Origin: an uncultured Chloroflexia bacterium | Lineage (GTDB): Bacteria > Chloroflexota > Limnocylindria > QHBO01 | NCBI GenBank assembly: GCA_963839635.1 | Contig: CAWIVT010000006.1 | Location: forward strand, 470,936 to 534,935 | Length of the DNA stretch: 64,000 bases | Direction of reading: 5' to 3' | Notes under the pieces: generated by a model | The model's database searches: none | Seen by the model: the letters and a program-made list of their open reading frames with translations, nothing else | What the model was told of the DNA's origin: nothing | Program-made: the position numbers and the translations under genes | Shown here: positions 2,864 through 23,432 of the stretch, piece after piece | How the letters are laid out: each line of letters starts with the position of its first letter | Numbering within the stretch: position 1 is the stretch's first letter

Positions 2864-4887
2864 ATGACGACGAACGGCCACGGCACGGACCCGGGCCGCC
2901 GCGTACCCGACGAGCACGTGCTTGGCTCCCCATTCCCGCCCATCGCCGAGTACGGTTTCCTGTCGGACTGCGAGACAACCGCGCTCGTCGCGCCGAGCGG
3001 CAACGTCGAGTGGCTGTGCCTGCCTCGGATGGATTCGCCGAGCGTGTTCGGCGCGATTCTCGACCGCGGTGCCGGCGGCTTCCGGCTCGGGCCGTCGGAC
3101 ATCAACGTGCCGGCCGCGCGGCGCTACCTGCCCGGCACCATGGTGCTCGAGACGAGCTGGGGCTCGCCGGGCGGCTGGATCATCGTCCGGGACGTGCTGC
3201 TCATCGGCCCCTGGCGACACACCGAGGCCCGATCGCAAGACGCAGCGCCGGCCGCCGACGGACTACGACGCCGCGCACATCCTGCTGCGCACGGTGCGGT
3301 GCGTGAACGGCGAGATGCAGCTCACGCTCGACTGCGAGCCGCGGTTCGAGTACGGCCTGCGAATCCGGCACGTGGAGCTACACCGAGGACGGCTACCACC
3401 AGGGCGATGTGTCGCGCCGAGGGCAGCGACGTGGAGCTGGTCCTCACCAGCGACATGAACATCGGCTTCGAGGGACCGCGCGCCAGCGCCCGGACGCTGC
3501 ATCAAGGAGGGTGAGACCCGCTTCTGCGCGCTCAGCTGGAACGGCGCGGCGGCGCCTCGCACCTACGACGATGCCTACCAGCGCCTCGTCTGGACCGCGC
3601 ACCACTGGCAGCACTGGCTGGCGCGCGGCAACTTCCCCGACCACCCGTGGCGCTCCCACCTCGAGCGCTCGCGCGCTCACCCTCAAGGGGCTGACCTACG
3701 CGCCGAGCGGCGCGATCGTCGCGGCGCCGACGACGTCACTGCCGGAGACGCCCGGCGGCGAGCGCAACTGGGACTACCGATACAGCTGGATCCGCGACTC
3801 GACCTTCGCGCTGTGGGGCCTCTACACGCTCGGCTTCGACTGGGAGGCCAAGGACTACCTCGCCTTCATCGCCGACGTCGCCGAGCGCGACAAGCGAGCT
3901 GCAGATCATGTACGGCATCGACGGCGAGCGCGGCGCTCGACGAGCGAATCCTCCCCCACCTGGGCGGCTACGAGGGCGCACGGCCGGTGCGCATCGGCAA
4001 CGCGGCGTACGGCCAGCGCCAGCACGACATGTGGGGCGCCGTGCTCGACTCGGTCTACCTGCACACCAAGTCTCGCGACCGGCTCGACGAGCGGGTCTGG
4101 CCGATCCTGACGCGCCAGGTCGAGGCCGCGATCGCGAACTGGCGCGAGCCCGACCGCGGCATCTGGGAGGTCCGTGGCGAGCCGAAGCACTTCACCAGCT
4201 CGAAGGTCATGTGCTGGGTCGCCGCCGACCGCGGCGCGCGCCTGGCACGCCTGCGCGGGGACGAGGAGCTCGCGGAGCGGTGGCAGGCGGCCGCCGACGA
4301 GATCCACGCCGACATCTGCGCCAACGGCGTCGACGAGCGCGGGGTGTTCACCCAGCACTACGAGACCGATGCGCTCGACGCCTCGGTCCTGCTCATGCCG
4401 CTCGTCCGCTTCCTGCCCGCCGACGACGAGCGCATCCGGCGCACGGTGCTCGCCATCGCCGACGAGCTGACCGACGACGGCCTGGTCCTGCGCTACCGGA
4501 CCGAGGAGACCGACGACGGCCTGAGCGGCGAGGAGGGCACGTTCACGATCTGCTCGTTCTGGCTGGTGTCGGCGCTGTGCGAGATCGGTGAGTACGCCCG
4601 TGCGCGCCGGCTGTGCGAGAAGCTGCTCTCGTACGCCAGCCCGCTGGGGCTGTACGGCGAGGAGCTCGATCCCGACACCGGGCGCCACCTCGGCAACTTC
4701 CCGCAGGCCTTCACCCACCTCGTCGCTCATCAACGCCGTCATGCACGTGATCCGCGCGGAGCACGGCGCCGTCGGCGGTGTCGCTCCCCTCACGCCGACG
4801 ACCCCGGCGCGCCCGACCTCCGGAAACGGCAGGGTGCACGCGGCCGAGCCGGCGCGGCGGGCGAAGAGGGCGGCGCGAAAGCGCTGA
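2864..4887 (+). pseudogene. Glycoside hydrolase family 15 protein (glucoamylase/trehalase-like), about 8 frame changes as sequenced
   Basis: GH15-like motifs are spread over ORFs 2864..3514, 2922..3458, 3409..4110, 3908..4591, 3813..4919 and 4588..4887. Examples: EYGFLSDCETTALVAPSGNVEWLCLPRMDSPSVF, SLPETPGGERNWDYRYSWIRDSTF, GIWEVRGEPKHFTSSKVMCWVA, NFPQAFTHL. The 3' end is uncertain. Confidence 0.8.
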
Positions 4888-5925: not shown

Positions 5926-6012
5926 ATGGACCTGATCTGGATCATCGTCATCGTTCTGGTGGTCTTGGCACTGCTCGGCTACTTCGGCTTCGGCCGTCGC
6001 CGCGGGCTCTAG
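5926..6012 (+). CDS. 28-aa single-pass membrane peptide (hypothetical)
   Basis: ATG at 5926 is preceded by GAGAGGAGGA at 5912-5921. It translates to MDLIWIIVIVLVVLALLGYFGFGRRRGL and stops at TAG 6010-6012. It is too short for the ORF track and there is no homology claim. Confidence 0.45.
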   Translation: MDLIWIIVIVLVVLALLGYFGFGRRRGL

Positions 6013-6033
6013 CCAGGGCTCACCCGCACGACA

Positions 6034-6070
6034 GTCCGCCGGGTGGCGAGCACCTCCCCGCCCGGCGGAC
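6034..6070 (+). terminator. GC-rich stem-loop (10-bp perfect stem, 17-nt loop) downstream of the small ORF
   Basis: gtccgccggg (6034-6043) is the exact reverse complement of cccggcggac (6061-6070). No U-tract follows, so its function as a terminator is only suggested. Confidence 0.35.
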
Positions 6071-6143
6071 GCACCAGTTCTCCTCCAGGTCGGCCGCTGC
6101 GCGCGGCCGGCCTGAACCAGCGTCGCGATCGGAGCCAGGCGCC

Positions 6144-7341
6144 GTGACGCGCATCCTCGTCTACACCGGCAAGGGCGGCGTCGGCAAGACGAGCGTCGCG
6201 GCCGCGACCGCGCTGGCCTGCGCCGACCGCGGCTACCGGACCATCGTGATGTCGACCGACATCGCCCACAGCCTCGGCGACGCCTTCGACCGGGAGCTCG
6301 GCCCGACCCCGCTCGAGATCGCGCCGAACCTGTGGGCGCAGGAGTCGGACGTCTTCTTCAACGTGGCGCGCTACTGGGGCCGGATCCAGGAGTACGCCGC
6401 ATCGGTCCTGCGCTGGCGCGGCCTCGACGAGGTGATGGCCGAGGAGATGACGGTCCTGCCCGGCATGGACGAGGTCGGCTCGCTGCTGTGGATCGCCGAT
6501 CACCACGACTCGGGCAACTACGACGTCGTCGTCGTCGATGCCGCGCCCACCGGCGAGACGCTGCGCCTGCTCTCCCTGCCGGAGGCGGCCAAGTGGTGGA
6601 TGGAGAAGATCGAGCCGATCGGGCGCCGGATCGCGAAGCTGACCGGCCCGCTCATCCAGCGCGTGGTGGGCATGCCGATGCCCGGCGACGACGTGTTCAA
6701 CGCCGGCGAGGAGCTGTTCGCGCGGCTCGACCACATGCACGCGCTGCTGACCGATCACGAGAAGACATCGGTCCGCGTCGTGCTCACCCTGGAGCAGGTG
6801 GTGATCAAGGAGGCGCAGCGCTCGTTCACCTACTTCCACCTCTACGACTACCCGACCGACATGGTCGTCGCCAATCGCGTCCTGCCCGACGACGTGGGCG
6901 CCTACTTCCGCGGCTGGTACGAGGCGCAGCAGCGCTACGGCCCGCTGGTCGAGAAGACGTTCCACCCGATCCCGGTGCAGCAAGGCGCCGTTCTTCGATC
7001 GCGAGATGGTCGGCATCGACCGCCTGCGCGAGCTGGCCGCCAGCGCTGTACGGCGACACCGATCCGACCGAGTTCTTCTACCGCGGCCGCCCGTACTAGG
7101 TGGTCCGCGACGACGGCGGCTTCCTGCGTCTCGGTCGACCTGCCGTTCACCGAGAAGGACCAGCATCAACCTGTCGCGCCACGGCGACGAGCTCGTCATC
7201 GACCTCGGCACCTGGCGCCGCACACTCGTCCTGCCGCGCATCCTGGTCGACGCCCCGACCGAGGGCGCGCGCTTCGAGGACAGAACCCTCAAGATCCGGT
7301 TCGGCACACCGGCACGCCCTGAAGGAGCACGCGACGCATGA
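6144..7341 (+). pseudogene. ArsA/GET3-family ATPase with C-terminal HSP20-like domain, about 4 frame changes plus an in-frame TAG at 7097
   Basis: GTG at 6144 follows GGAG at 6131. The P-loop is ILVYTGKGGVGKTSVAAATA, with DVVVVDAAPTGETLRLLSLPE further on. The C-terminal part DLPFTEKDQ/INLSRHGDELVIDLGTWRRTLVLPRILV is split over ORFs 5517..7322, 6332..7099 and 7006..7341. Confidence 0.8.
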
Positions 7342-7640
7342 CCGATCACACCACCCCCCGACCGCACCGCCGACCTCGAGGCGCGGATCGCCGAGCTCGA
7401 GCGGCGCAACTGGCGCGCGACCATGGACGAGGGCCGATCCGGCATCGAGACCGCCTTCTGGGCCGCGGTCCACACCGTCTTCCCCGAGGAGGCGCGCAAG
7501 CACCTCAAGGTCGCCGGCCGCGAGCAGCTGCTGGCGGCGCGCGTCTACCTCGACAAGCTGGATCGCACGGCTGGACGAGGACGAGAAGCAGGACGACTCG
7601 GCTGACGGCCGTGCGCACGAGAAGGATCGAGGTCGAGTAG
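7338..7640 (+). pseudogene. Small (~100 aa) helical hypothetical protein overlapping the ArsA-like stop, about 3 frame changes
   Basis: ATG at 7338 overlaps the TGA at 7339-7341. The plausible reading is MTDHTTP / DRTADLEARIAELERRNWRATMDEGRSGIETAFWAAVHTVFPEEARKHLKVAGREQLLAARVYLDKL / IARLDEDEKQDDSADGRAHEK / IEVE, spread over three frames. The first break is at a C-run near 7355-7361. Confidence 0.4.
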
Positions 7641-9629: not shown

Positions 9630-10751
9630 CTAGCCGACACCCCGGAGCACCGCCTCGGTGTGCTCCCCCAGCCGAGGAGGCGGGAGCCGCGCCAGCAGGC
9701 TCGCACCATCGACGCGGATCGGCGACGGCGCCAATCGCACTCCGTCCAGCGTTTCGGTCCAGCGTCCTTCGGAGGCGCCTTCCATGCTCGCCAGCGCCTC
9801 GCCCACGCCGTTGATCGGGCCGGCGGGCACGTCAGCAGCCTCGAGCGCCGCGATGAGCTCATCTCGACCCCGCCGACCGATTGCATCGGACAACACCGCG
9901 ATAAGCTCGGCACGATGCTCCAGGCGCTGGGGATTCGTGGCGTAGCGGCCGTCGTCAACCACCCCGAGCACCCCGACCAGGCGGCGGAACTGTGCGTCGT
10001 TGCCCGCTGCGACGACGAGATCACCGTCCGCCGCGGAGAAGGCCTGGTACGGGACGATGTGCGGGTGCGCGTTGCCATGGCGCTCGGGCTCGGCGCCCGT
10101 GGCGAGGTGGCTCCCGAGGACATTGATGAGCGACGTCACGCCGGCCTCGACCAGGCTCACCTGCACGGAGGCCGTGCGTCCGCGCCCGACGAGTGACGCC
10201 AGCGCCCCAACCGCACACTCCAGGCCCGCCACGAGGTCGAGCATCGCGACGCCCACCTTGACGGGGCCGCCGTCGGGCGTTCCCGTGATCGACATCAGGC
10301 CGCTGACCGCCTGCGCCAGGAGGTCGTACGCGGGGCGGTCGGCAGCCGCTCCGGGGAAGCCGCCCACACTGGCAACGACCAGGTTCGGGTGGCCGGCACG
10401 GAGCTCATCCGCCCCCATCCCCAGGCGGGCTGCGGTGGCCGGCCGATAGTTGTGCACGAGCAGGTCGGCCGTCGCGAGCAGGCGGTCGAAGGCGGCGCGG
10501 CCATCGTCGGCACGCAGGTCGAGGACAACGCTTCGCTTGTTCCGGTTCACGGAGGCGAAATAGGCGCTCCGCCGATCCTCAGGGTCGCCCCACCATGGCG
10601 GCCCCCACGTTCGGGTTTCGTCGCCATCGGGTGACTCGATCTTGATCACGTCCGCACCGAGATCGCCCAGGAGCATCGTCGCGAACGGACCGGCCAGCAC
10701 GCGGCTGGCGTCGATCACCCGGATGCCGTCGAGTGGCAGGAGTGGCGTCAT
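9630..10751 (-). CDS. CaiB/BaiF family (class III) CoA-transferase
   Basis: Lower part of ORF 9630..11699. The start, read directly from the sequence, is ATG at 10751 (MTPLLPLDGIRVIDASRVLAGPFATMLLGDLGADVIKIE), followed by YFASVNRNKRSVVLDL. Confidence 0.85.
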   Translation of the reverse strand: MTPLLPLDGIRVIDASRVLAGPFATMLLGDLGADVIKIESPDGDETRTWGPPWWGDPEDRRSAYFASVNRNKRSVVLDLRADDGRAAFDRLLATADLLVHNYRPATAARLGMGADELRAGHPNLVVASVGGFPGAAADRPAYDLLAQAVSGLMSITGTPDGGPVKVGVAMLDLVAGLECAVGALASLVGRGRTASVQVSLVEAGVTSLINVLGSHLATGAEPERHGNAHPHIVPYQAFSAADGDLVVAAGNDAQFRRLVGVLGVVDDGRYATNPQRLEHRAELIAVLSDAIGRRGRDELIAALEAADVPAGPINGVGEALASMEGASEGRWTETLDGVRLAPSPIRVDGASLLARLPPPRLGEHTEAVLRGVG

Positions 10752-12618: not shown

Positions 12619-15096
12619 TCAGGCGCGGACGGGCTCCGCGGCGCCCTCGTACAGGCCGAGCCGTGCGACGCCGCGTTGCACCCAGCGTGGCGCCCACCAG
12701 TTGACGGCGCCCATGACGCGCATGAAGGCGGGGACCAGGATGCCGCGCACGACCGTGGCGTCGATCAGCACGGCGAGCGCCATGCTGAAGCCAAGGGCCT
12801 TGATGAGCACCACCGACGACAGGGCGAACGCGCCGAACACGGCAACCATGATCAGCGCGGCGCCGGTGATGATCCCGCCGGTGATCCCGATCCCCTCCGC
12901 CACGGCCCGAGTGTTGTCTCCCGTGGCGAGGTAACGCTCGCGGATGCGCGAGAGGAGGAAGACCTCGTAGTCCATTGAGAGGCCGAACAGGATCGCGAAC
13001 ATGAGGATCGGCGTCGACGCGATCGTGGTGCCGGACGGGTCGAAGTCGAGCAGGCCGGACAGGTTGCCCTCCTGGAAGATCCAGACCAGGGCTCCGAAGC
13101 TCGCCGTGATCGACAGCAGGCTCATGAGCACCGCTTTCACCGGCAGGAAGACCGATCCGAACGTGAGGAACAGCACGGCGCCCGTGACGCCAACGACGAT
13201 GGCGACCGCCCACGGCACCGCGTGCGTAAAGCTGGCGAGGAAGTCGGTGGAGCGCGACGACAGTCCCGCGGTCAGCACGTCCTCCGTCCCGGCCGGCGCC
13301 GGGACGGCGCGCACCGCATCGACGAGCTGGCGGCCGTCGGCTGAGTCGGGCAGCAACGTGCTGAACACGTTGACGCGCGTGACGTCGTCCGCGATCCACT
13401 GGTCCAGCCAGACGGCGATCGCGGCGGCCTCGGGAGGGCGCTGCTCCACGGGCAGGGTCGCGATCTGGAGGTAGGTCGCCTCGTCCATGCCCGCGGGCGG
13501 ATCGAGAACGCTCGCGACGTCGCTCACGCCGTCCAGTGCCCCGAGCTCGCCGATGAACGAACGGAGCTCCTCGATCCAGGTCGGGTCGAGCGCGCCATCG
13601 GTGAGGATCGGCTCCTCGGTGTGCACGGCGACCTCGATCGGGTCCGCGCCGCCGCTGGGGAACTCGTCCTCCAGGATGCGGAAGCCGGTGACGCTGTCGG
13701 ATGGGGGCAAGTCATCGAGATTGCCGCCGGTCGACAGCTGAATCCCGAAGAACGGCAGCCCGGCCAGGACGAGCACGAGCAGGACCGGGGCGGCGACGAG
13801 GAGCGGTCGCCGCATGACGACGCGCGCGACTCGGCCCCAGACGCCGTGGCCCCGGCGAGCGTCGGCCGCGGAGACGTCGTCCTCGATCAGGCGCAGCGAG
13901 CGCGGGAGCGGCACGCGCAGCCGGTTGACGCGCGGGCCGAGCATGCCGAGCAGCGCCGGCAGGACGGTGAGCCCGAAGATGAGCGTCGAGAGGACCGTCA
14001 CGACGCCGCCGATTCCCATGCTGCGCAGCGCCGGCGACTCGAAGACCGTCAGGCTGGAGAGGCCGATGGCGACCGCGATGCCGCTGATCGCGACGGCCTT
14101 GCCGACGGTCGCCATGGTGTGCTCGACGGCATCGGCCACCGAGCGGTGGCGCAGCTCCTCCCGGAAGCGGCTGACGGTGAAGAGCGAGTAGTCGATCGAG
14201 AGCGCCAGTCCGATCATGGTGGCCACGTTCGTGACGAAGATGCTCATCTCGGTGACGCCCGCGAGCAGCCCAATCGCCGCCATCGAGCTCGGCAGCGCCA
14301 TCCCCGCGATGATGAGCGGCAGCGCGGCGCCGACGACCGTGCCGAACACGGCGAGGAGGATCAGCATCGCGATCGGCAGGCTGATGAGCTCGGCCCGAAC
14401 GAGATCCTGCTCGACCGCCTCGTTGAACTCGTGCTGCACGATCGGGATGCCGGTCACCGTGGTCTCGACGCCAGCGGGGGCGTTCACCAACGCCGCCAGG
14501 TGCTCGGCATCGTCGACGGCGTCCTCCACGTCCTCGTTCAGCCGAAGGAGAGCGATGGTCTTGTCGCCGCCCTCGCTGAGGAACGACGGGTCGCCGACGT
14601 CGGCGTAGGTGAGGATCTCGTCGACGATCGGCTCATCGCTCAGCGGCGCGACCGAGTCGGCCACCGTGTCCTGGAACTCGTCGGACGCAGCGTCACCATC
14701 CGGATCGGTGAAGATGACGATCAGGGTCGTCGCGGTCTCGCCGAAGCGATCCGCGAGCAGCGCCTCCGCGCGCGCCGCCTCCGAGCCCGGAACCTGCCAG
14801 CCGCCTTGGCTCAGCCTGCCCCCCGCCGTCGCGCCCCACACGTTCAGCGCGATGACGATGGCGAGCCCTGCGAGCGGCAACCAGCGCCGATGGCGGTACG
14901 TGGCGCGCCCAAGCGCCGCGAAGATCCCGTTGTGTCCGATCCGGTCGTCCGTGGTGCGCGGATCCGGTGGCCGCGCGGCGTCGGGGGCCTCCGGGAGGCC
15001 CGGCGGCAGCTCGATCGCATCCCGCCCGCCCCGAATCGCGAGCCACGTGGCGGCGATCAGTGCGAGAGCTCCCCCCACGATCAGCGGACGGCGCAT
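12619..15096 (-). CDS. MMPL-family (RND superfamily) membrane transporter
   Basis: Intact 825-aa ORF. It has two blocks of about 6 TM helices, each preceded by a soluble loop, and typical MMPL strings (IDYSLFTVSRFREEL, MDYEVFLLSRIRE). Confidence 0.9.
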   Translation of the reverse strand: MRRPLIVGGALALIAATWLAIRGGRDAIELPPGLPEAPDAARPPDPRTTDDRIGHNGIFAALGRATYRHRRWLPLAGLAIVIALNVWGATAGGRLSQGGWQVPGSEAARAEALLADRFGETATTLIVIFTDPDGDAASDEFQDTVADSVAPLSDEPIVDEILTYADVGDPSFLSEGGDKTIALLRLNEDVEDAVDDAEHLAALVNAPAGVETTVTGIPIVQHEFNEAVEQDLVRAELISLPIAMLILLAVFGTVVGAALPLIIAGMALPSSMAAIGLLAGVTEMSIFVTNVATMIGLALSIDYSLFTVSRFREELRHRSVADAVEHTMATVGKAVAISGIAVAIGLSSLTVFESPALRSMGIGGVVTVLSTLIFGLTVLPALLGMLGPRVNRLRVPLPRSLRLIEDDVSAADARRGHGVWGRVARVVMRRPLLVAAPVLLVLVLAGLPFFGIQLSTGGNLDDLPPSDSVTGFRILEDEFPSGGADPIEVAVHTEEPILTDGALDPTWIEELRSFIGELGALDGVSDVASVLDPPAGMDEATYLQIATLPVEQRPPEAAAIAVWLDQWIADDVTRVNVFSTLLPDSADGRQLVDAVRAVPAPAGTEDVLTAGLSSRSTDFLASFTHAVPWAVAIVVGVTGAVLFLTFGSVFLPVKAVLMSLLSITASFGALVWIFQEGNLSGLLDFDPSGTTIASTPILMFAILFGLSMDYEVFLLSRIRERYLATGDNTRAVAEGIGITGGIITGAALIMVAVFGAFALSSVVLIKALGFSMALAVLIDATVVRGILVPAFMRVMGAVNWWAPRWVQRGVARLGLYEGAAEPVRA

Positions 15097-15173
15097 GAGT
15101 CTCTCAATGAATAGACGTTCATCATCACGGACCGGACTCTACCGCTTGCAGAATCCCGCCGTCAAGTGCAAGA

Positions 15174-15187
15174 TGAATTGCAATTCA
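15174..15187. promoter_or_regulatory. Perfect 14-bp palindrome TGAATTGCAATTCA in the MMPL/TetR divergent intergenic region (candidate TetR operator)
   Basis: Read directly at 15174-15187. It lies in the only clearly AT-enriched stretch nearby (15100-15209), 23 nt upstream of the TetR start codon. Confidence 0.55.
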
Positions 15188-15209
15188 CTTCCGAAGCGCG
15201 AGCAATTCG

Positions 15210-15809
15210 ATGCCACGAACCAGCGCCGCCCATGCCACGGAGATGCGCCAGCGCATCCTCGACGGCGCCCATCGGGCCATGCTCGCCGGCGGCTACCGCG
15301 GTACCACCATGCCGGCCATCGCGGCCGAGGCGGACGTCAGCGTGGGGCTCCTGTACCGGTACTTCGACAGCAAGGAAGAGCTCTACCTTGCCATGTGCGA
15401 GGGGGTGACGCAGGCGCAGCTCAACGAGCTGGCGGCGCAGATGGGCCAGATCGCCGATCCCCGAGAGCGGCTCGCACGTGCCGTCGGCTACTTCGTCGAG
15501 AGCCTCGAGGCCGAGCGCTGGGGCGCCATCATCACGACCGGCTGGGCCGAGGCCGACGTCAACCCGGCGCTGCGCGACATGCTGCGGCGACGCTGCGACC
15601 AGATCCGCGCATTCGCGTCAATGTTCCTCCGCGAGGCCGTCGCGCGGGGCGAGGTGGAGCCGGATATCGACGTCGAGGAGCTCAGCCTCGCGGCGACGAT
15701 GCTCATGGACGGGGTCGTCGCACACCAGGCCGAGATGGGCGATCGGTTCGATGCCGCCCTCGCCAAGCGTTCGGTCATCGCGCTCATCGGACGGACGCTC
15801 AGCAGCTGA
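15210..15809 (+). CDS. TetR/AcrR-family transcriptional regulator
   Basis: Intact 199-aa ORF. The N-terminal HTH region is RQRILDGAHRAMLAGGYRGTTMPAIAAEADVSVGLLYRYFDSKEELY. It is divergent from the MMPL gene. Confidence 0.9.
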   Translation: MPRTSAAHATEMRQRILDGAHRAMLAGGYRGTTMPAIAAEADVSVGLLYRYFDSKEELYLAMCEGVTQAQLNELAAQMGQIADPRERLARAVGYFVESLEAERWGAIITTGWAEADVNPALRDMLRRRCDQIRAFASMFLREAVARGEVEPDIDVEELSLAATMLMDGVVAHQAEMGDRFDAALAKRSVIALIGRTLSS

Positions 15810-15998
15810 CGCTGACATCGCTTCGTTGGCGGAGGCCGCCACGTGCGCGAACATGGCCGATCGATCTTCCTTTACAGCGTATGCTGCGACTGGATCTGGC
15901 CTTGCCTTGCCCATCGTGGACCGTGCCCAGGCAGCAGCGATCCGAGAATCAGGAGGCTGCAGGAGAGGCGTCACCGCTCGGCGTCACCCCTGCCTGCG

Positions 15999-18900
15999 AT
16001 GTCGACGGCACCGGACCCGAGGCCTGGCGCGCGCCGGGGGGCTTGCATCGCCATCTCCGCATTCTCGCTTCTCCTGGGTATCGGCTTGGTAGTGGCATCG
16101 GGCACGTGGTCGCCAGCGAGGGCCGCAACGATCACCTGGACCGGCCTCGGGGCCACCACCAATTGGAACCTGGCCACCAACTGGTCGACAGTCACGGTGC
16201 CTGGGGCGGCCGACGTCGCTGTCTTCGACGGAACCAGCCCCAAGCCGGTGCTCATCAACGCCAATGTGAACGTCGCTGGATTACAGGTCACCCCCGCCTA
16301 TGGCGGCACGGTCACCCAGGGCGCGGGCCGCACCATCACGCTCGGTGCCAACGGCTGGGCCCACTCGGGCGTCTTCAACGGCAGCGACGCGGCCATCACT
16401 ATCAACGGCCCCTTCACCCTGAGCGGCGGCGTCTTCACGGCCACGAGCGGGATCATGAGCGTGGGAGGCGATTTCACGCACGCGGCCGGCTCGTTCGCGC
16501 ACAACGCCGGCACGCTGCGGTTCACCGGGGCAGCGGCAGCCATCGACCTCGCGGTGAGCCTTTCGGTATGGAACCTCGGCCTGGCGCAGAACAACCTTGC
16601 GCCGAAGACCCTCGCTGCGGGCGACACACTCATGGTGGACGGACTCCTCACGCTCACGAACGGAACGTGGGAGGGAGGAGAGCTTCATGCCCACGGCGAC
16701 ATCGTCGCCGCCTCCGCCTTCGATGGTGGCACCGCCACCCTGCGCATCAACGGCGCCGGCAACCAGCTGCTGACCGGCAGCGCCACCACCACCGTCGGTG
16801 CGCTGCCCACTCTGGTCATCGACAAGCCGAGCGGCACGTTGAGCCTGGCCGGCACGATCCGCACCCTGCGTGACTGGACCTACGCCGCTGGCCTGCTCAA
16901 CGCCGGCACCAGCAACGTTGTGTTCAGCGGCACGCAGACCATCGCCGGCAGCCACAGCCTGGCCGGCGTCGAGCTGCGCAACGCGCTGGTCAGGACCCTG
17001 GCGCCGGGCACCACGCTGACCGTCACCGGCCTGCTGCGATTGAACGATGGCGAGCTCAACGGCGGCGACAGCCTGGATGCCCACGGCGACATCGTCGCCG
17101 CCTCCGCCTTCGATGGTGGCACCGCCACCCTGCGCATCAACGGCGCCGGCAACCAGCTGCTGACCGGCAGCGCCACCACCACCGTCGGTGCGCTGCCCAC
17201 TCTGGTCATCGACAAGCCGAGCGGCACGTTGAGCCTGGCCGGCACGATCCGCACCCTGCGTGACTGGACCTACGCCGCTGGCCTGCTCAACGCCGGCACC
17301 AGCAACGTTGTGTTCAGCGGCACGCAGACCATCGCCGGCAGCCACAGCCTGGCCGGCGTCGAGCTGCGCAACGCGCTGGTCAGGACCCTGGCGCCGGGCA
17401 CCACGCTGACCGTCACCGGCCTGCTGCGATTGAACGATGGCGAGCTCAACGGCGGCGACAGCCTGGATGCCCACGGCGACATCGTCGCCGCCTCCGCCTT
17501 CGATGGTGGCACCGCCACCCTGCGCATCAACGGCGCCGGCAACCAGCTGCTGACCGGCAGCGCCACCACCACCGTCGGTGCGCTGCCCACTCTGGTCATC
17601 GACAAGCCGAGCGGCACGTTGAGCCTGGCCGGCACGATCCGCACCCTGCGTGACTGGACCTACGCCGCTGGCCTGCTCAACGCCGGCACCAGCAACGTTG
17701 TGTTCAGCGGCACGCAGACCATCGCCGGCAGCCACAGCCTGGCCGGCGTCGAGCTGCGCAACGCGCTGGTCAGGACCCTGGCGCCGGGCACCACGCTGAC
17801 CGTCACCGGCCTGCTGCGATTGAACGATGGCGAGCTCAACGGCGGCGACAGCCTGGATGCCCACGGCGACATCGTCGCCGCCTCCGCCTTCGATGGTGGC
17901 ACCGCCACCCTGCGCATCAACGGCGCCGGCAACCAGCTGCTGACCGGCAGCGCCACCACCACCGTCGGTGCGCTGCCCACTCTGGTCATCGACAAGCCGA
18001 GCGGCACGTTGAGCCTGGCCGGCACGATCCGCACCCTGCGTGACTGGACCTACGCCGCTGGCCTGCTCAACGCCGGCACCAGCACACTCATTCTGGCCGG
18101 GACGGAGACGTTGACGACCGGCGCGGCGTCGCTGTACCGATTGCAGGTGCGCGGCGGCACGGCGACGCTCGCAGGCCCCCTCACACTTACGAACGACCTG
18201 AACGTCGTGGCCGGCACCTTCAACCTCGATGGCAACCCGGTCGACGTTGCAGGTTCCCTCACGGTCGCTGGGACCCTCATCGCAGACGGCACCGAACTTC
18301 GCGTCGCGGGCAACGTCACTGCGCCGGGCTCATTCCAGGCCGGAACCGGCAGGCTCGTCCTTGACGGGACCCTCCTTCAGCAGCTCGACCTCGTGAGCTC
18401 GGCCTTGAACGACCTCACCCTCGACAATGCGGCCGGCGCTTCGTTGCTCACTGACCTCGCGGTGGGGGGCACGCTGGAACTGGCGTCCGGGTCGCTGACA
18501 ATCGGTGCGCACCGGCTCACCATCGCGATGCCCATCGAGGGGACCGCCACCAGCCTGGTTGCAGGGTCGAGCTCCTCCCTGACGGTGGCGGGGACTGCCG
18601 CCGGGATCAGCGTGCCCACATCGATCATCGACCTTGCCGAGCTTTCGATCACGAACCCGGCCGGGACATCGATCGGTGGTCCCCTCACGCTTCACGTGGG
18701 CCTCGTACTGGGCGGCGGGAACCTGCACGCAGGCCCTCACCTCGTCACCATCGCGGCCGGAGGGTCGGTCGGACGGACCAGCGGGCACGTGATCGGCGCG
18801 CTCCAGAAGTCGATCTCCGTCGGAGGGCCGCTGAGCTTGACGTTCGAGATCGGCGACGCGAGCGGCTACACGCCGGTGCAGGCGAGCTGGGTCTCGGTCA

Positions 18901-19742
18901 GCGCAGCGGGCACGATCGCCGCCTCCACCGAGGCCGGCGACGACGTCGCCGGCCTCACGGCCACGGGTTTGGTACCAACGGCCAGCGTGAACCGCACCTG
19001 GACGCTCGTGGCCGGCAGCGGCGTGGTCGTCGGACCGACGTCGGTGAACGTCACGTTCCTTGCCTCCGACCTCGACCCGGCCGCGCGTCCGATGGATCTG
19101 CTGGCTGTCAGCTCCAGTGGAGGAGGCTCGACGCTGGCCGCCGTCACGCAGCGCACCCCCACGACGACGACGCTGACCCTGGAGGGAGCTCCGAACGGGA
19201 CCATCGCCCTCGGCATGCCCGGAGCCGACCTCGGGATCGGACTGACCGGACCGACGAGCGGGACAGTCGATCAACCCCTCGCCTACATCGTCACCATCAC
19301 CAACAACGGACCGTTCGACGCCAGCCTGGTCACCGCTCGCATCACCCTCCCGGCAGCGTCGGCGCCTCGCTCCACCATGCCGAGCCAGGGAACCTGCCAG
19401 CTCGGCGGGACCGTCCTCACCTGCGACCTCGGGCCAATGGCATCCGGCTCGAACGCGTCCGTTGGGTTCACCGTCGCATTTGCGTCGGCCGGGTCCCACC
19501 AGCTTGCCGCAGCGGTGAGCGTGGGGGGCACCGCGGTCGACCCCACTGCGCCCAACGACAGCACGATCCTCGACGTGGCGATCAGCCAGCCGACGCCTGC
19601 CTCAACTGGCATCCGCCTGCTCCCGGACACCTCGACGCCGCTGGGCTGGGCGATCAGCCTCGCGCTCCTCGCTGTGCTAGCCATGTCCGGCGTAGTACTG
19701 ACCGCAATCGTCGCCCGGGTTCGGTCGTCGTCTCGGCGATAA
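15999..19742 (+). CDS. Giant secreted surface protein: signal peptide, Gly/Thr/Ala-rich beta-helix-like repeats, DUF11-like domain, C-terminal LPDTS + TM + basic-tail sorting signal
   Basis: Intact ORF 15843..19742. ATG at 15999 gives MSTAPDPRPGARRGACIAISAFSLLLGIGLVVASGTWSPARA|ATITW, a signal-peptide-like N-terminus. The DUF11-like segment is LAYIVTITNNGPFDASLVTARITLP...CQLGGTVLTCDLGPMASGSNASVGFTV. The C-terminus is LLPDTSTPLGWAISLALLAVLAMSGVVLTAIVARVRSSSRR. The start codon is uncertain (15843 is the alternative). Confidence 0.8.
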   Translation: MSTAPDPRPGARRGACIAISAFSLLLGIGLVVASGTWSPARAATITWTGLGATTNWNLATNWSTVTVPGAADVAVFDGTSPKPVLINANVNVAGLQVTPAYGGTVTQGAGRTITLGANGWAHSGVFNGSDAAITINGPFTLSGGVFTATSGIMSVGGDFTHAAGSFAHNAGTLRFTGAAAAIDLAVSLSVWNLGLAQNNLAPKTLAAGDTLMVDGLLTLTNGTWEGGELHAHGDIVAASAFDGGTATLRINGAGNQLLTGSATTTVGALPTLVIDKPSGTLSLAGTIRTLRDWTYAAGLLNAGTSNVVFSGTQTIAGSHSLAGVELRNALVRTLAPGTTLTVTGLLRLNDGELNGGDSLDAHGDIVAASAFDGGTATLRINGAGNQLLTGSATTTVGALPTLVIDKPSGTLSLAGTIRTLRDWTYAAGLLNAGTSNVVFSGTQTIAGSHSLAGVELRNALVRTLAPGTTLTVTGLLRLNDGELNGGDSLDAHGDIVAASAFDGGTATLRINGAGNQLLTGSATTTVGALPTLVIDKPSGTLSLAGTIRTLRDWTYAAGLLNAGTSNVVFSGTQTIAGSHSLAGVELRNALVRTLAPGTTLTVTGLLRLNDGELNGGDSLDAHGDIVAASAFDGGTATLRINGAGNQLLTGSATTTVGALPTLVIDKPSGTLSLAGTIRTLRDWTYAAGLLNAGTSTLILAGTETLTTGAASLYRLQVRGGTATLAGPLTLTNDLNVVAGTFNLDGNPVDVAGSLTVAGTLIADGTELRVAGNVTAPGSFQAGTGRLVLDGTLLQQLDLVSSALNDLTLDNAAGASLLTDLAVGGTLELASGSLTIGAHRLTIAMPIEGTATSLVAGSSSSLTVAGTAAGISVPTSIIDLAELSITNPAGTSIGGPLTLHVGLVLGGGNLHAGPHLVTIAAGGSVGRTSGHVIGALQKSISVGGPLSLTFEIGDASGYTPVQASWVSVSAAGTIAASTEAGDDVAGLTATGLVPTASVNRTWTLVAGSGVVVGPTSVNVTFLASDLDPAARPMDLLAVSSSGGGSTLAAVTQRTPTTTTLTLEGAPNGTIALGMPGADLGIGLTGPTSGTVDQPLAYIVTITNNGPFDASLVTARITLPAASAPRSTMPSQGTCQLGGTVLTCDLGPMASGSNASVGFTVAFASAGSHQLAAAVSVGGTAVDPTAPNDSTILDVAISQPTPASTGIRLLPDTSTPLGWAISLALLAVLAMSGVVLTAIVARVRSSSRR
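16687..18084 (+). repeat. Perfect tandem repeat, 390-bp unit x about 3.6 copies, in frame (130 aa per unit) inside the surface-protein CDS
   Basis: The string atgcccacggcgacatcgtcgccgcctccgccttcgatggtggc starts at 16687, 17077, 17467 and 17857. The printed lines are identical copy to copy. The track shows three identical 124-aa antisense ORFs at 16880, 17270 and 17660. Identity ends at 18084. Confidence 0.95.
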
Positions 19743-19773
19743 TCGAGCGGATGTTCCAATCGGCCCATGCCCC

Positions 19774-21100
19774 ATGACCGCGATGGCGCCTGCCGCGTGG
19801 TGGCGCGGACTCGGCGGGTTGACGCGCAGCGGCAGCTCGATCGAGGCGCTCGCCTGGGCCTTCTACGACTTCGCGAACACGATCTTCAGCTTCGCCATCG
19901 TCAGCTTCGCGATGAGCCTGTGGACCATTCGCTTCCTGGGTGAAGGCCCGGGGACCTTCTGGTTCACCGCGGCGGTGAGCGTGTCGGTCCTGCTGAATGC
20001 GATCGTCTCCCCCGTCCTGGGTGCCATGAGCGACCGCGTCGGGCGCCGCAAGCCGTTCCTGGCGGTCTTCACGATCGCTCTGCATCGTGGGCACGGCCGT
20101 CATCGGCCTCGTCGACATTCGCCTCGGCCTCGTCGCGTTCGCGATCGCGAACTTCGCCTACCAGGCAGCGCTGATCTACTACGACGCGCTCCTTCCCGAC
20201 GTCGCTCGACCGATCGCTCGCGGACGCATCTCCGGAATCGGCGTGGCACTCGGCTACTGCGGCACGCTGCTCGTCGGGGTGATCCTGCTGATGGGCATCA
20301 CGGTCCAGGACGACCGCTCGACGCCCGCGACCTTCGCGCTGGTCGCCGGGCTGTTCCTCGTCTTTGCCGGCCCGCTCTTCCTCCTCGTCCATGAGCGCGA
20401 GCGCGGGGGCACGCGCTTCAGCGCGGCCGATGCGGTCCGCTCCTTCGGCCAGCTCGCGAGGACCGTCGCGCATGCACGCGCGGCGCCCGGGCTGCTGCGA
20501 TTCATCGTCGCGCGCTTCTTCTACTCCGACCCGGTGAACACGGCGATCGCCGTCATGAGCTCTTTCGCCGTCTACGCGGTCGGCTTCACGGAGGGCCAGG
20601 CGCTACAGGTGCTACTGATCCTGACGGTCGTCGCCGTCATTGCATCGTTTGGCTGGGGCTTCCTGGCGGATCGATGGGGACCGCGCCGCACCCTGTTCGC
20701 GGTGCTGGCGGTCTGGGCCGTCGGCCTCGCTATCCTGACCCTGTTCCTGTCGACCATCCCGTTCCTGTTCGCCGGCGCGCTGCTCGGCGCCGGGCTCGGG
20801 GGCGTCGGCGTGGTGGATCGGCTCATGCTGCTGAGGCTCACGCCGCCGGAGCGGGTTGGCGAGATGTTCGGGCTCTACGGCCTGGTCGGGAAGTTCAGCG
20901 CCGTCGTTGGGCCGATCGTGTACGGGACCATCGTCGCCGTGCTGCTGGAGGGCCTCGACCGCGGCGCGTATCAGGTCGCCATCGCGTCGCTCTTCGTGCT
21001 CCTGCTGGTCGGGATCGCGATCCTGCGCGGCGTGCCGGAGGGCGAGCCGGAGAACGAGGAGCTCGCCGCCGACGCGCTGGCGGAGGGCATGAACCGATGA
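19774..21100 (+). CDS. MFS transporter, UMF1 (Atg22-like) family (one frame change near 20070)
   Basis: ORF 19774.. gives LAWAFYDFANTIFSFAIVSF...AMSDRVGRRKPFL. ORF 20087..21100 continues with about 10 more TM segments (FAIANFAYQAALIYYDALLPDV, RISGIGVALGYCG). Confidence 0.8.
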
Positions 21101-21876
21101 CGATCGTGGTCGCACACCGCGGCTTCTCCGCCCAGGCGCCCGAGAACACGATGGAGGCGTTTCGCCTCGGGGTCGAGGCCGGGGCCGATGCGATCGAGCT
21201 GGATGTCCACCTCACGGCCGACGGACAGCTCGCCGTCATCCACGACGAGACGCTCGATCGGACCACCGACCGCACCGGATCCGTTGCGAGCCAGACCATG
21301 GACCAGATCCGCCAGGCCGATGCCGGCGCGACCTTCGCGCGCCCGGACGATTCGGGCTTCCCGTTCGCCGGAAAGGGTCACCGCGTGCCGACGCTACCCG
21401 AGGTCCTCGACTGGCTGGCGGAGGGCATCGGCCTCGTCATCGAGATCAAGGCCCGCGCCGCCGCGGACGCCGTCGTCGAGGCCCTCCGGGGCCATGCGGT
21501 TCAGGCCGGCGGACGGCTGGCGGTCATCAGCTTCGACGAGGCCACCATCGAACGCGTGCACGAGCTCGATCCGGCGATCAGGACGGGCTATCTGCTGGTG
21601 CCCGGCCAGCCGGTCCCTCCCGCCCTCGTTTGGGCCACGGAGCACGGTCACGTCGGCGTCTTTCCATGGGACGGCGATCTCGGGATCGATCCGATGCCGC
21701 TCATGGCCGAGGCTGCGGCCTACGGCCGCGAGATCGGCTGCTACGTGGTCAACGACCCCGGACGCATGCAGCACCTGGCGGCCTACGGCCTGTGGGGCTT
21801 CGTCACCGACGTCCCCGACGTCGCCCGGGAAGCCCTCGGTCCTCCCAAGCCCCAGGTCGACGCGCCGCGTTCCTAG
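21097..21876 (+). CDS. Glycerophosphodiester phosphodiesterase (GDPD family)
   Basis: ATG at 21097 overlaps the MFS stop (ATGA). Motifs: MTIVVAHRGFSAQAPENTMEAFRLGVEAGADAIELDVHLTADGQLAVIHDETLDRTT. Confidence 0.88.
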   Translation: MTIVVAHRGFSAQAPENTMEAFRLGVEAGADAIELDVHLTADGQLAVIHDETLDRTTDRTGSVASQTMDQIRQADAGATFARPDDSGFPFAGKGHRVPTLPEVLDWLAEGIGLVIEIKARAAADAVVEALRGHAVQAGGRLAVISFDEATIERVHELDPAIRTGYLLVPGQPVPPALVWATEHGHVGVFPWDGDLGIDPMPLMAEAAAYGREIGCYVVNDPGRMQHLAAYGLWGFVTDVPDVAREALGPPKPQVDAPRS

Positions 21877-23432
21877 CGGCGGCCGCGCCCGGTCAGGATG
21901 CCCAGGACCGAGCGCAGGATCGTGTTGAAGGTGCCCGACCGGGCGAACCGCGCACCCTCCTGGGCGACGTCCTTCCAATCGACACCACGCTCCGGCGCGC
22001 GGGTCGGGCGCATCCGACGCTCGTCCGGCGACTCCGGATCCTGGACGCCATCCATCTCTTTCCGGGCCTCCGTCGTCGCCTTGGCCAGCCGTGCCGCGAG
22101 AAGCTCCTTCGCGGACTCCGGATCCGTGTCGGCGGCGTACGAGGCGGCGATCGGCGATGCGGCGGCCACGGCGTCGAAGACGGCCGGCTCGACCTGGGCC
22201 ATCAGCGACATCGGCGGACGGAGCATGGTGCGCACGGTCGGCATCGGACGGCCCTTGGGATCCAGCGCGGTGATGAGCGCCTCGCCGGTGCCGAGCTTGG
22301 TGAGCTCCTCCTCCACGTCGTAGAACGCGGTCGTCGGGAAGGTGTCGGCGGTGGCTCGCACCGTCTCGAGGTCGTCGGGGGTGAAGGCCCGTAGCGCGTG
22401 CTGGACGCGGTTGCCGAGCTGCCCGAGCACCTCCGCCGGCACGTCCGTCGGTGAGTGGGTCACGAAGAAGACGCCGACCCCCTTGGATCGAATGAGGCGA
22501 GCCACGAGCTCGATCTGCTGCATGAACGTCTTGTTCGCATCGCGAAACAGCAGGTGCGCCTCGTCGAAGAAGAAGACGAGCTTCGGCTTCTCGAGGTCGC
22601 CCACCTCCGGAAGGGACTCGTACAGCGAGGCCAGGAGCCACATCATGAAGGTGCTGAACAGGGCGGGCCGGTCCTGCATGTCGGCCAGCTCGAGCACGTT
22701 GACGACCCCGCGGCCCTCTTCGTTCGTGCGCAGGAACTGGTCGACGTCGAACTCGGGTGAGCCGAAGAAGGCATCGGCCTCCTGCTGCTCGAGCTCGACG
22801 ATCTTGCGGATGATGACCCCGGCAGTGGCTGTGGCCACGCCGCCGTACTCCGCCATCTCGGCCTTGCCCTCGTCCGAGTTGAGGTGATTGAGGAGCGCGC
22901 GCAGGTCGTCGAGATTGACCAGGGGGAGCTGCTTGTCGTCCGCGTACTTGAACGCCAGGGCCAGGACGGACTGCTGGGTGTCGTTGAGGTCGAGCACCTT
23001 CGACAGCAGGATCGGACCGAAGCTCGAGACCGATGCGCGCAGTCGCACGCCCTTGCCGTCGCGGTCCAGCGTCAGGAACTCGACCGGAAACGCCCTCGGC
23101 GCGTAGCCGGCAAGACCGATGGCCTGGGCGCGTGCCGTCAGCTTCTCGTTCGGCGTGGCCGGGGCTGCGAGGCCGCTGATGTCGCCCTTGATGTCGCTGA
23201 TGAAGACCGGAACGCCCGCGTCGGACAGCTGCTCGGCGAGAACCTGGAGCGTCTTCGTCTTGCCGGTGCCGGTCGCGCCGGCGACGAGCCCGTGCCGATT
23301 CATCATCCCGAGGGGCACCCGGACCTGGAGGGCGGGAAACGTCTCATCCCCGCGCATCGCCGCGCCGAAGACGATCCCCGGACCCTCGAAGCCGTACCCG
23401 GCGGCGAGCGCCTCTTCGAATTCGTTGGCCAT
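21873..23432 (-). CDS. HerA-like helicase-domain ATPase (DUF853 / YjgR family)
   Basis: Intact 519-aa ORF. Walker A is HGLVAGATGTGKTKTLQ, Walker B-like is KLVFFFDEAHLLF, with KGVGVFFVTHSPTDVP. Confidence 0.85.
   Translation of the reverse strand: MANEFEEALAAGYGFEGPGIVFGAAMRGDETFPALQVRVPLGMMNRHGLVAGATGTGKTKTLQVLAEQLSDAGVPVFISDIKGDISGLAAPATPNEKLTARAQAIGLAGYAPRAFPVEFLTLDRDGKGVRLRASVSSFGPILLSKVLDLNDTQQSVLALAFKYADDKQLPLVNLDDLRALLNHLNSDEGKAEMAEYGGVATATAGVIIRKIVELEQQEADAFFGSPEFDVDQFLRTNEEGRGVVNVLELADMQDRPALFSTFMMWLLASLYESLPEVGDLEKPKLVFFFDEAHLLFRDANKTFMQQIELVARLIRSKGVGVFFVTHSPTDVPAEVLGQLGNRVQHALRAFTPDDLETVRATADTFPTTAFYDVEEELTKLGTGEALITALDPKGRPMPTVRTMLRPPMSLMAQVEPAVFDAVAAASPIAASYAADTDPESAKELLAARLAKATTEARKEMDGVQDPESPDERRMRPTRAPERGVDWKDVAQEGARFARSGTFNTILRSVLGILTGRGRR

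Follow-up and report, generated by a model that had tools for sequence, protein, structure and literature searches.

The window, a stretch of 64,000 nucleotides from an uncultured Chloroflexia bacterium, carries a perfect tandem array of a 390-bp unit inside a single gene. We consider it likely that the array is real and biological, and that it represents a module amplified and homogenized by recombination in an anchored surface protein with a solenoid-like rod. As read from the sequence, the pattern is consistent with unequal recombination or gene conversion that acted repeatedly (concerted evolution) on a surface protein resembling the "Periscope Proteins". The array is a recombination-driven repeat array of a known kind and leaves current ideas standing.

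A perfect in-frame tandem array

Tandem Repeats Finder reports a period of 390 at positions 16687-18084 of the plus strand, with 3.6 copies, 100% matches and 0% indels; the array comprises 3.585 copies over 1398 bp, with neither mismatch nor indel between copies. Exact comparison shows that all 390 bases of copies 2 and 3 equal those of copy 1, and that copy 4 shares its first 228 bases with copy 1 and differs at 106 of the remaining 162 positions. The self-match at a lag of 390 runs for 1008 bp, a length that excludes chance as the cause, and does not extend leftward, which places the left edge of identity at 16687. The earlier note, made from the letters alone, had described 3.6 identical copies at these positions, and both analyses confirm this: exact alignment found none of the base differences between units that it proposed to look for, and the lag-390 match agrees with the period for which it suggested a self-comparison.

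The array lies in frame within an open reading frame of the plus strand (15843-19742), from which the gene is called at the ATG at 15999. As had been proposed, the period is a multiple of three (390 = 3 x 130), and the frame is kept inside this 1247-residue gene. Three identical 124-residue antisense ORFs, noticed in the same early reading, do exist in the ORF list of the minus strand (16880-17254, 17270-17644, and 17660-18034). They are by-products of the repetition of a 70%-GC sequence and not genes, since the plus strand is the one that carries the homology, the Pfam domain, and the confidently modelled structure.

Domain organization of the predicted protein

By ORF and translation, the gene (P0001; 15999-19742, plus strand) encodes a 1247-residue, all-beta repeat protein that is predicted to be secreted and anchored to the membrane or wall. 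An identical 1247-residue protein occurs on two contigs in a public protein collection. From the N-terminus, its parts are a signal-peptide-like segment, a long all-beta region of ~130-residue modules, a beta-sandwich region, one DUF11/CLIPPER domain, and a C-terminal tail. The first segment (15999-16124), read from the sequence by eye, has a basic n-region, a hydrophobic core, and A-R-A before ATITW; the predicted mature start, ATITWTGLG, is conserved among relatives.

In protein terms, the array corresponds to one hybrid first module followed by three identical modules. The hybrid, module 0 (16545-16913; module HMM match at residues 183-305), begins with ~47 unique residues, ends with 76 residues that equal the repeat unit (228 bp from 16687), and is 78% identical to modules 1-3. 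The module HMM and identity matrix define modules 1-3 (16914-18083, divided as 16914-17303, 17304-17693, and 17694-18083), each of which spans 130 residues (NVVFSG...NAGTS) and is 100% identical to the others. An all-beta continuation of degenerate, module-like segments (TLILAGTETL...) extends from 18084 to approximately 18800, with weak module HMM matches at residues 719-796 and 800-912 and a short-strand pattern in the model. The conserved beta-sandwich region that follows (approximately 18801-19250) is delimited by invariant alignment columns and motif positions. It holds the most invariant motifs of the family, EIGDxxGYxP (18846-18875) and SVNRTWT (18984-19004), which we chose for finding relatives.

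A single DUF11/CLIPPER (CnaA-like Ig) domain adjoins this region (19251-19565; Pfam PF01345, residues 1085-1189), scoring 46.6-46.9 bits against a Pfam gathering cut-off of 24.6. Its model matches the CARDB structures 2kl6 and 3idu and the CLIPPER structure 9ifr with target-normalised TM-scores of 0.73-0.79. Motif positions and a helix in the model identify a sorting-signal-like tripartite tail (19620-19739), composed of LPDTS (19620-19634), a hydrophobic and predicted helical stretch (19641-19715, residues 1215-1239), and RVRSSSRR (19716-19739). The combination of motif, helix, and basic tail recurs in 31 of 68 relatives, with the family consensus [LV][PA][DN]T[SAGTR]. The NCBIfam LPXTG model does not match P0001 at E <= 1, and the 64-kb window contains no TLxTC-type sortase-like ORF. 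The signal-like N-terminus, the tail, and the CLIPPER domain are hallmarks of surface anchoring, in line with the earlier suggestion of a surface protein; to judge from these features, the product is predicted to be secreted, displayed at the surface, and anchored through its C-terminus.

A probable solenoid fold without a significant database match

The AlphaFold2 model of residues 48-1247 has a mean pLDDT of 91.6 and is all-beta apart from one C-terminal helix. A separate model of the repeat region, containing the four modules, reaches a pLDDT of 94.6 and a pTM of 0.88 and is likewise all-beta with a 130-residue period; the DSSP pattern recurs every 130 residues in both models. Pfam and NCBIfam searches with P0001 and 12 relatives return nothing beyond DUF11/CLIPPER, leaving the repeated unit itself with no Pfam family match in these proteins. 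Sub-threshold matches to Amnionless, PATR, YscD, and MCM_OB were set aside as weak.

When the whole 1200-residue model is compared with the PDB, the repeat region is unmatched and only the C-terminal Ig-like domains find counterparts (integrin leg domains, CARDB, and CLIPPER). A Foldseek search of the PDB with the repeat-region model alone returns beta-helix proteins as all its best matches, none of them significant (best E 0.12, TM at most 0.24); the top match is Ag43 (E 0.12, TM 0.17). The family profile finds nothing under E 0.2 among PDB sequences. Based on the models, the repeat region probably folds as a solenoid, an assignment that is qualitative.

Arrays in a second assembly and in relatives

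The gene is flanked by two conserved neighbors on the plus strand: a TetR-family regulator gene directly upstream (15210-15809), supported by Pfam TetR_N on the neighbors of L001, L002, and L003 and by tblastn synteny, and an MFS transporter gene directly downstream (19774-21100), supported by synteny. The view that the surroundings are riddled with indels does not hold for the window, where the TetR and MMPL neighbors are intact and the MFS gene has a single frameshift near 20078-20091. Dense error patches belong instead to L001, an ENA contig from a second assembly of the same population; we rejected a generally poor consensus, as the noise lies in L001 and not in the window. L001 carries the same array with equal copy number and sequence, and one mismatch in the whole gene.

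L002, from a sister species, contains the syntenic orthologue, with TetR upstream, MFS downstream, and ~80% overall identity to the window gene. Its array consists of a 387-bp unit in 3.58 copies, one of which has a 1-bp insertion while the copies are otherwise identical. The edges of identity lie no more than 2 nt from those in the window, and a copy number of 3.6 is found in both assemblies of the window population and in the sister species. The two units are 87.7% identical to each other. With a Jukes-Cantor distance of 0.135 between the species and 0 differences in 1008 compared positions, the most recent homogenizing event in each lineage would, on sequence grounds, date to about the final 2% of the period after the split. 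The earlier proposal of very recent expansion or continuing homogenization by unequal recombination is borne out by this comparison, since L002 has the same 3.6-copy array, internally identical with a unit that is 12% different, and other species have independent perfect arrays.

Two such arrays, in L007 (381 bp x 4.85) and L008 (387 bp x 3.67), are 100% identical internally and have boundaries unlike those in the window. P0011 has four diverged modules, other relatives have amplified different module types or two-module units, and several carry arrays whose copies differ at one or two residues (99.3-99.7% identity). Separate perfect duplications affect the C-terminal stretch of P0009, P0015, P0020, P0063, and P0064, where Pfam lists DUF11/CLIPPER. 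More distant relatives have 1-6 strong modules per protein and arrays of 1.5-5 copies, the one-module cases lying on short-read contigs. We rejected P0012 and P0014 (817 and 887 residues, one module each) as unexpanded orthologues because they lie on MEGAHIT k141 contigs, in which perfect arrays would be expected to shrink to such a form. Arrays of at least 99% identity occur in 25 of the 37 relatives on contigs of at least 50 kb (68%) and in 19% of those on shorter contigs. Across the wider family, clustering at 50% identity gives 1520 clusters for the ~130-residue module, and a single protein contains as many as 23 module matches.

Copy numbers and per-copy identities derive from consensus sequences of Nanopore/Flye-type assemblies rather than from reads. 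The GTDB genome scan was built on an alignment of 12 close sequences; an alignment of 46 sequences held no stretch conserved enough. In JGI metagenomes, an exact-match scan with a 30-nt unit-junction probe returned nothing and a family scan returned two distant fragments only; no copy-number variants of the species came to light.

Origin of the array

We propose that the N-terminal two thirds of the protein form a continuous, all-beta, solenoid-like rod of ~130-residue modules, in which one module type was amplified and homogenized to give the hybrid first module and the three identical ones. The process would be driven by unequal homologous recombination of the RecA type, together with gene conversion, between adjacent modules, with the conserved second halves of the modules providing the homology. 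Whole modules would be gained or lost in frame, and copies would be kept identical by concerted evolution. Such gains and losses would change the length of the rod. From the DSSP assignment of about five strand-turn coils per module, each module may add roughly 2-3 nm, and rod length may in turn govern the reach of the N-terminal end beyond the cell and the number of identical surface patches on display, which is the mode of action of Periscope Proteins.

A different origin for the perfect identity would be an error of assembly or polishing, in which the true copy number differs or a consensus step made differing copies identical. The source contig is of the Flye 'contig_N' type, from long-read metagenome assembly, and the relatives derive from Nanopore-only MAGs given a single round of polishing with Medaka (PMC12313526). 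Residual errors are present, as in the MFS frameshift and the error patches of L001, and perfect arrays lie mostly on long-read contigs. We nevertheless regard an artefact as very unlikely. Two assemblies with contigs of unequal size and different error patterns contain the same array, the period matches the length of one protein module, and the frame is preserved in every species examined. The one-copy indel of L002 and the imperfect arrays in relatives indicate that identity between copies is not forced. That indel also implies that the polishing pipeline handles copies separately; with the whole 3.7-kb gene clean and the second assembly in agreement, the consensus collapse raised in the earlier note finds no support. 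In addition, a 1.4-kb array is presumably short compared with long reads, and the link to long contigs is expected if short-read assemblers collapse arrays. Even if the array is genuine, it could record a one-off, very recent, and selectively neutral burst of duplication with no ongoing homogenization and no role in length. The absence of differences between copies fits a recent event, and the two assemblies show no copy-number variation within the species. This seems quite unlikely, however, given the shared boundaries and separate unit sequence of L002, which require either homogenization after the split or parallel expansions, and given perfect arrays with differing units and boundaries in about two thirds of long-contig relatives, a frequency unlike that of a rare accident.

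The remaining alternatives concern what the array does. The contingency label applied in the earlier note, whereby a change in repeat number switches expression on or off, has in its favor only the location of a repeat in a surface-protein gene, and such phase variation is extremely improbable here: the 390-bp unit codes for a folded module, the gain or loss of copies leaves the frame intact and so cannot switch the gene, and Tandem Repeats Finder detects no short homopolymer or oligonucleotide tract in the gene. Alternatively, selection might hold the protein at four modules, with gene conversion acting on an array that is not a device for length variation. An organization of one hybrid and three identical modules is common to the window, L001, L002, and L008, and four strong modules are likewise found in P0011 and P0022. 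We judge a fixed length unlikely, because strong modules number 2, 3, 5, or 6 in close relatives, the module count in the wider family rises far higher, and identical tandem DNA is expected to vary readily in copy number (PMC8201768); moreover, only three truly close genomes are sampled. A broader version of this idea, to which we likewise assign a low probability, is that soil Chloroflexota possess an extensive, unannotated family of surface proteins built on a continuous beta-solenoid rod and subject to unusually fast concerted evolution, in which module number stays constant and gene conversion maintains identity under selection for fixed length or identical patches. Four modules are present in three species, one of them with independent array boundaries; if true, such constancy would be the opposite of the length-variation logic of Periscope Proteins. 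Amplification and homogenization of a module by recombination remains our preferred reading.

The Periscope class has so far been described mainly from host-associated bacteria and with bead-like domains, and the present array extends highly identical, in-frame domain arrays of surface proteins to an uncultured, abundant soil lineage of a little-studied phylum. Short-read metagenomes are probably subject to a systematic error in the length of such genes, as suggested by the excess of perfect arrays on contigs of at least 50 kb. The widespread ~130-residue module, with neither a Pfam family nor a solved relative, is a candidate for curation and structure determination.

Comparison with known systems

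Beta-helix and solenoid proteins (Ag43, EtpA, Hap, pertactin, and RsaA; MpAFP RIV; CdrA with its MBG repeats) are the sole PDB type retrieved by the repeat-region model, without significance. As in such adhesins, rod length would be set by the number of coils; P0001 differs from them in the lack of a significant match (E >= 0.12, TM <= 0.24) and in its super-repeat of ~130 residues. Its N-terminal TWTGxGxxxNWxxxxNW...PGxxDxAxF start and weak PATR and Amnionless matches are reminiscent of 'beta strand repeat-containing' proteins, a name that NCBI gives to two relatives. Unlike autotransporter and two-partner-secretion adhesins, P0001 has a predicted anchor of C-terminal LPxT, helix, and basic tail, and Pfam and NCBIfam detect no autotransporter barrel or TPS domain in it.

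The CLIPPER domain is a characteristic stalk domain of surface fibrillar adhesins (PMC12617251). P0001 resembles these proteins in having a bona fide PF01345 domain adjoining the anchor and a predicted layout of signal peptide, long extracellular region, and sorting signal, but tandem-CLIPPER stalks repeat this domain, whereas here it occurs once and is not the repeated unit. The pentapeptide, hydrophobic stretch, and basic tail are those of sortase-anchored LPXTG proteins of monoderm bacteria, except that the motif, LPDTS, ends in Ser rather than Gly and the curated LPXTG model is unmatched. LPNTA, the Bacillus anthracis SrtC motif, belongs to the LP[DN]T[SAG] pentapeptide family.

In concept and proposed mechanism, the array matches the Periscope Proteins, which include the SasG/Aap G5-E repeats, Rib/alpha C, Sgo_0707 SHIRT, Esp, and CdrA (Whelan et al. 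2021, PMC8201768). As here, intragenic recombination is their proposed driver, and their arrays are visible only in long-read assemblies (PMC8201768). Unlike these proteins, P0001 belongs to an uncultured soil Chloroflexota rather than a host-associated Firmicute or Proteobacterium, its unit, to judge from the models, seems to form part of a single continuous all-beta rod and not a bead-like globular domain with linkers, no separate distal ligand-binding domain is identified, and the variation in repeat number between strains that defines the class is not seen at close range (two assemblies and the sister species). Its predicted N-terminal export signal and C-terminal anchor resemble theirs, and it shares with them long tandem repeats (>50 residues) of very high DNA identity that each encode a folded unit and have a period that is a multiple of three. 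Its 130-residue unit is present in 3.58 copies that are 100% identical at both the DNA and protein levels, and is close in size to the 128-residue G5-E unit of SasG.

A perfect in-frame array in a predicted surface protein

Tandem Repeats Finder detects a single array in the window, at 16687-18084, with a period of 390, 3.6 copies, 100% matches and zero indels. A base-by-base check agrees with this and with the earlier note's description of a 390-bp unit repeated 3.6 times at 100% nucleotide identity: copies 2 and 3 match copy 1 at 390 of 390 bases, and copy 4 matches it for 228 bases and diverges afterwards. The lag-390 self-match spans 1008 bp with no leftward extension, and the DNA is laid out as A-(B-A)x3, with A measuring 228 bp and B 162 bp. 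G+C content is ~70% across the whole window. The three identical 124-aa antisense ORFs that the earlier note had placed at 390-bp intervals are present in the window's ORF list (16880-18034, minus strand), alongside a 527-aa ORF (16281-17864, minus strand). The three 124-aa ORFs simply arise from one GC-rich stretch translated three times from the non-coding strand; long antisense ORFs of both kinds are typical at 70% G+C, and nothing supports them as genes.

The array is in frame within an ORF at 15843-19742. Translation from the ATG at 15999 gives a 1247-aa product with a residue-for-residue match in a public protein collection, where it occurs on two contigs (568 kb and 425 kb). Residues 1-42 start basic and have a hydrophobic core, with A-R-A preceding a conserved ‘ATITWTGLG’. 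An all-beta region (residues ~45-860) is followed by a conserved beta-sandwich region carrying the most invariant motifs of the family, EIGDxxGYxP and SVNRTWT, and by one DUF11/CLIPPER domain (PF01345), which scores 46.9 bits where the cut-off is 24.6. CLIPPER domains are CnaA-like Ig domains, typically found in stalks of fibrillar adhesins at the cell surface (PMC12617251). At the C-terminus, a linker containing Pro and Thr leads into LPDTS, then a hydrophobic helix of 25 residues and finally RVRSSSRR; 31 of 68 relatives have such a tail of motif, helix and basic residues, with the motif in the form [LV][PA][DN]T[SAGTR]. Given its N-terminus, CLIPPER domain and C-terminal tail, the protein is predicted from sequence to be exported and anchored at its C-terminus on the cell surface. 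The curated LPXTG model does not match it, and the window contains no sortase-like ORF.

Each repeat unit encodes a module of a predicted solenoid

A profile built from the array unit recovers it as a module of ~128 residues. Module 0 occupies residues 183-305 and the identical modules 1-3 residues 306-435, 436-565 and 566-695, with weaker, degenerate module-like stretches to either side. Module 0 is a hybrid, 78% identical to the unit overall, in which the last 76 residues are identical and the first part differs. AlphaFold2 models of residues 48-1247 (pLDDT 91.6) and 170-720 (pLDDT 94.6, pTM 0.88) both display short strands every ~7 residues and an exact 130-residue period by DSSP. In these models, each module would contribute about five strand-turn coils to a solenoid-like rod and lengthen it, as a very rough estimate, by 2-3 nm. 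When the repeat region is searched against the PDB with Foldseek, every hit is a beta-helix or solenoid protein (Ag43, EtpA, an antifreeze beta-helix, tailspikes, RsaA, Hap and pertactin), none of them significant (best E 0.12, TM ≤ 0.24).

No Pfam family covers the ~130-residue module, and among PDB sequences no solved structure is related to it. Nevertheless, 1520 clusters at 50% identity contain a match to the module profile, 889 of them at E ≤ 1e-10, and one protein of 3369 aa has as many as 23 such matches. The module (for example, window 16914-17303) could form the basis of a new curated family. A mild degree of novelty lies in the host lineage, in a unit that is probably a solenoid, and in this uncurated but widespread module.

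The array is reproduced in a second assembly

A second assembly of the same population (L001; ENA ERZ25039530 contig_29665, 425 kb) carries the identical protein and aligns with window positions 6002-29712 at 98.0% identity. Differences are limited to patches at 6000-7500, 13500-15500 and 19500-22500, where mismatches reach 10% and indels are numerous; elsewhere ~0-2 positions differ per 500 bases. Within the repeat gene there is one mismatch (16400), and the array is equal in number and sequence. In the window, the neighboring MMPL and upstream TetR genes are intact and the downstream MFS gene has one frameshift, whereas MMPL and MFS are shattered in L001. The noisy patches are therefore local consensus failures of L001, possibly caused by low coverage or mixed strains, and not window errors. 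The earlier note had described an error-free array amid indel-riddled surroundings and proposed consensus collapse of the copies; the window's own surroundings are largely intact, so that proposal loses its basis.

The MFS gene (19774-21100, plus strand) is split by its frameshift near 20078-20091 and is a pseudogene unless the shift is a residual indel error; it encodes 442 aa and is intact in the sister species (L002) and in the related locus L003. Near its start, a 15-bp tandem repeat (~2 copies, ATCGTCAGCTTCGCC-like) is conserved in four loci (window 19882-19910; L002 13066-13099; L003 4029-4059; L004, another related locus, 3367-3400) and probably encodes merely a repeated hydrophobic motif.

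Relatives bear names from the Microflora Danica long-read MAG set, which was built from Nanopore reads with Flye assembly and one Medaka polish (PMC12313526). In L002, a single extra C at 9944-9945, present in the first array copy only and probably an indel error from Nanopore sequencing, splits the gene into 275-aa and 975-aa products; its removal restores one long ORF. Several relatives have arrays that differ by one or two residues between copies. The pipeline thus polishes copies separately, which, together with the identical array in L001, argues against an assembly artefact. Judged from assembled consensus sequences, little doubt remains on this point.

Array copies evolve in concert within lineages

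L002 is the closest long-read relative and shares gene order with the window (CoA-transferase, luciferase-like, MMPL, TetR, repeat gene, MFS, HerA and S9 peptidase). Its repeat gene has ~80% DNA identity to the window gene and contains 3.58 copies of a 387-bp unit, identical save for the 1-bp insertion, with left and right identity edges at most 2 nt from those of the window. The two units, in contrast, are only 87.7% identical (JC distance 0.135). Copies thus match inside each genome but differ from one genome to the other, which is concerted evolution. Because 0 differences occur in 1008 compared positions, the last homogenizing event in each lineage would fall within ~2% of the time since the two split. 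The L002 orthologue also has a 48-bp tandem repeat (12652-12782; 2.7 copies, 93% matches) in the Pro/Thr-rich linker preceding its LPDTS. This repeat, absent from the window gene, is a second, smaller length-variable segment of the protein.

Perfect arrays also occur in two GTDB species representatives, as 381 bp x 4.85 (L007) and 387 bp x 3.67 (L008); their edges differ, so they arose from independent events. In P0003 and P0007, two-module units are amplified such that module types alternate between two, while the four modules of P0011 share only 57-75% identity. Tandem repeats at ≥99% identity are present in 31 of the 68 closest relatives, whose median contig is 227 kb with such a repeat versus 10.6 kb without; they are found on 25 of 37 contigs of at least 50 kb versus 6 of 31 shorter ones (Fisher p = 8e-5). 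Two apparent one-module orthologues were rejected as uninformative on copy number, since both lie on MEGAHIT contigs, where a perfect array would collapse to that form. In P0009, P0015, P0020, P0063 and P0064, a C-terminal stretch with Pfam DUF11/CLIPPER contains 100% identical tandem duplications of 251-255 residues; perfect amplification in the family thus extends beyond the 130-residue module. Annotated relatives are labeled uncultured Chloroflexia, Chloroflexota or Candidatus Limnocylindria MAGs, two of them syntenic with the window, and no additional close relatives turned up in scans of JGI metagenomes. The source is presumably a Chloroflexota bacterium living in soil or sediment.

Mechanism and relation to known repeat proteins

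Unequal homologous recombination together with gene conversion between adjacent modules would keep the copies identical. The pattern matches because whole modules are amplified, with identity running partway into the first, and because edges sit where module halves become similar and units differ by lineage. Very recent expansion or continuing homogenization by unequal recombination, as the earlier note had suggested, fits with the sister species having its own identical unit and other lineages having others. A less likely reading is that selection holds the length at four modules, with gene conversion alone responsible for the identity of the copies. The 3.6 copies found in both assemblies of the population and in the sister species speak for it, whereas module number varies from 1 to 6 strong modules among more distant relatives. 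Overall, the array is well explained by recurrent intragenic recombination that keeps perfectly repeated, in-frame structural modules of a predicted surface protein identical.

The term contingency locus, in its usual sense, does not apply, since a unit of 390 bp preserves the reading frame and so cannot turn the gene off. A closer parallel is offered by Periscope Proteins, surface proteins with stalks of highly identical folded repeats for which intragenic recombination has been proposed (PMC8201768). Whereas these are defined by differences in repeat number among close strains, both assemblies of this population and the sister species have 3.6 copies; the features readable from sequence, namely repeats of more than 50 residues, at least 80% identity and a predicted surface-type architecture, are all present, and the product would be a Periscope-like protein.
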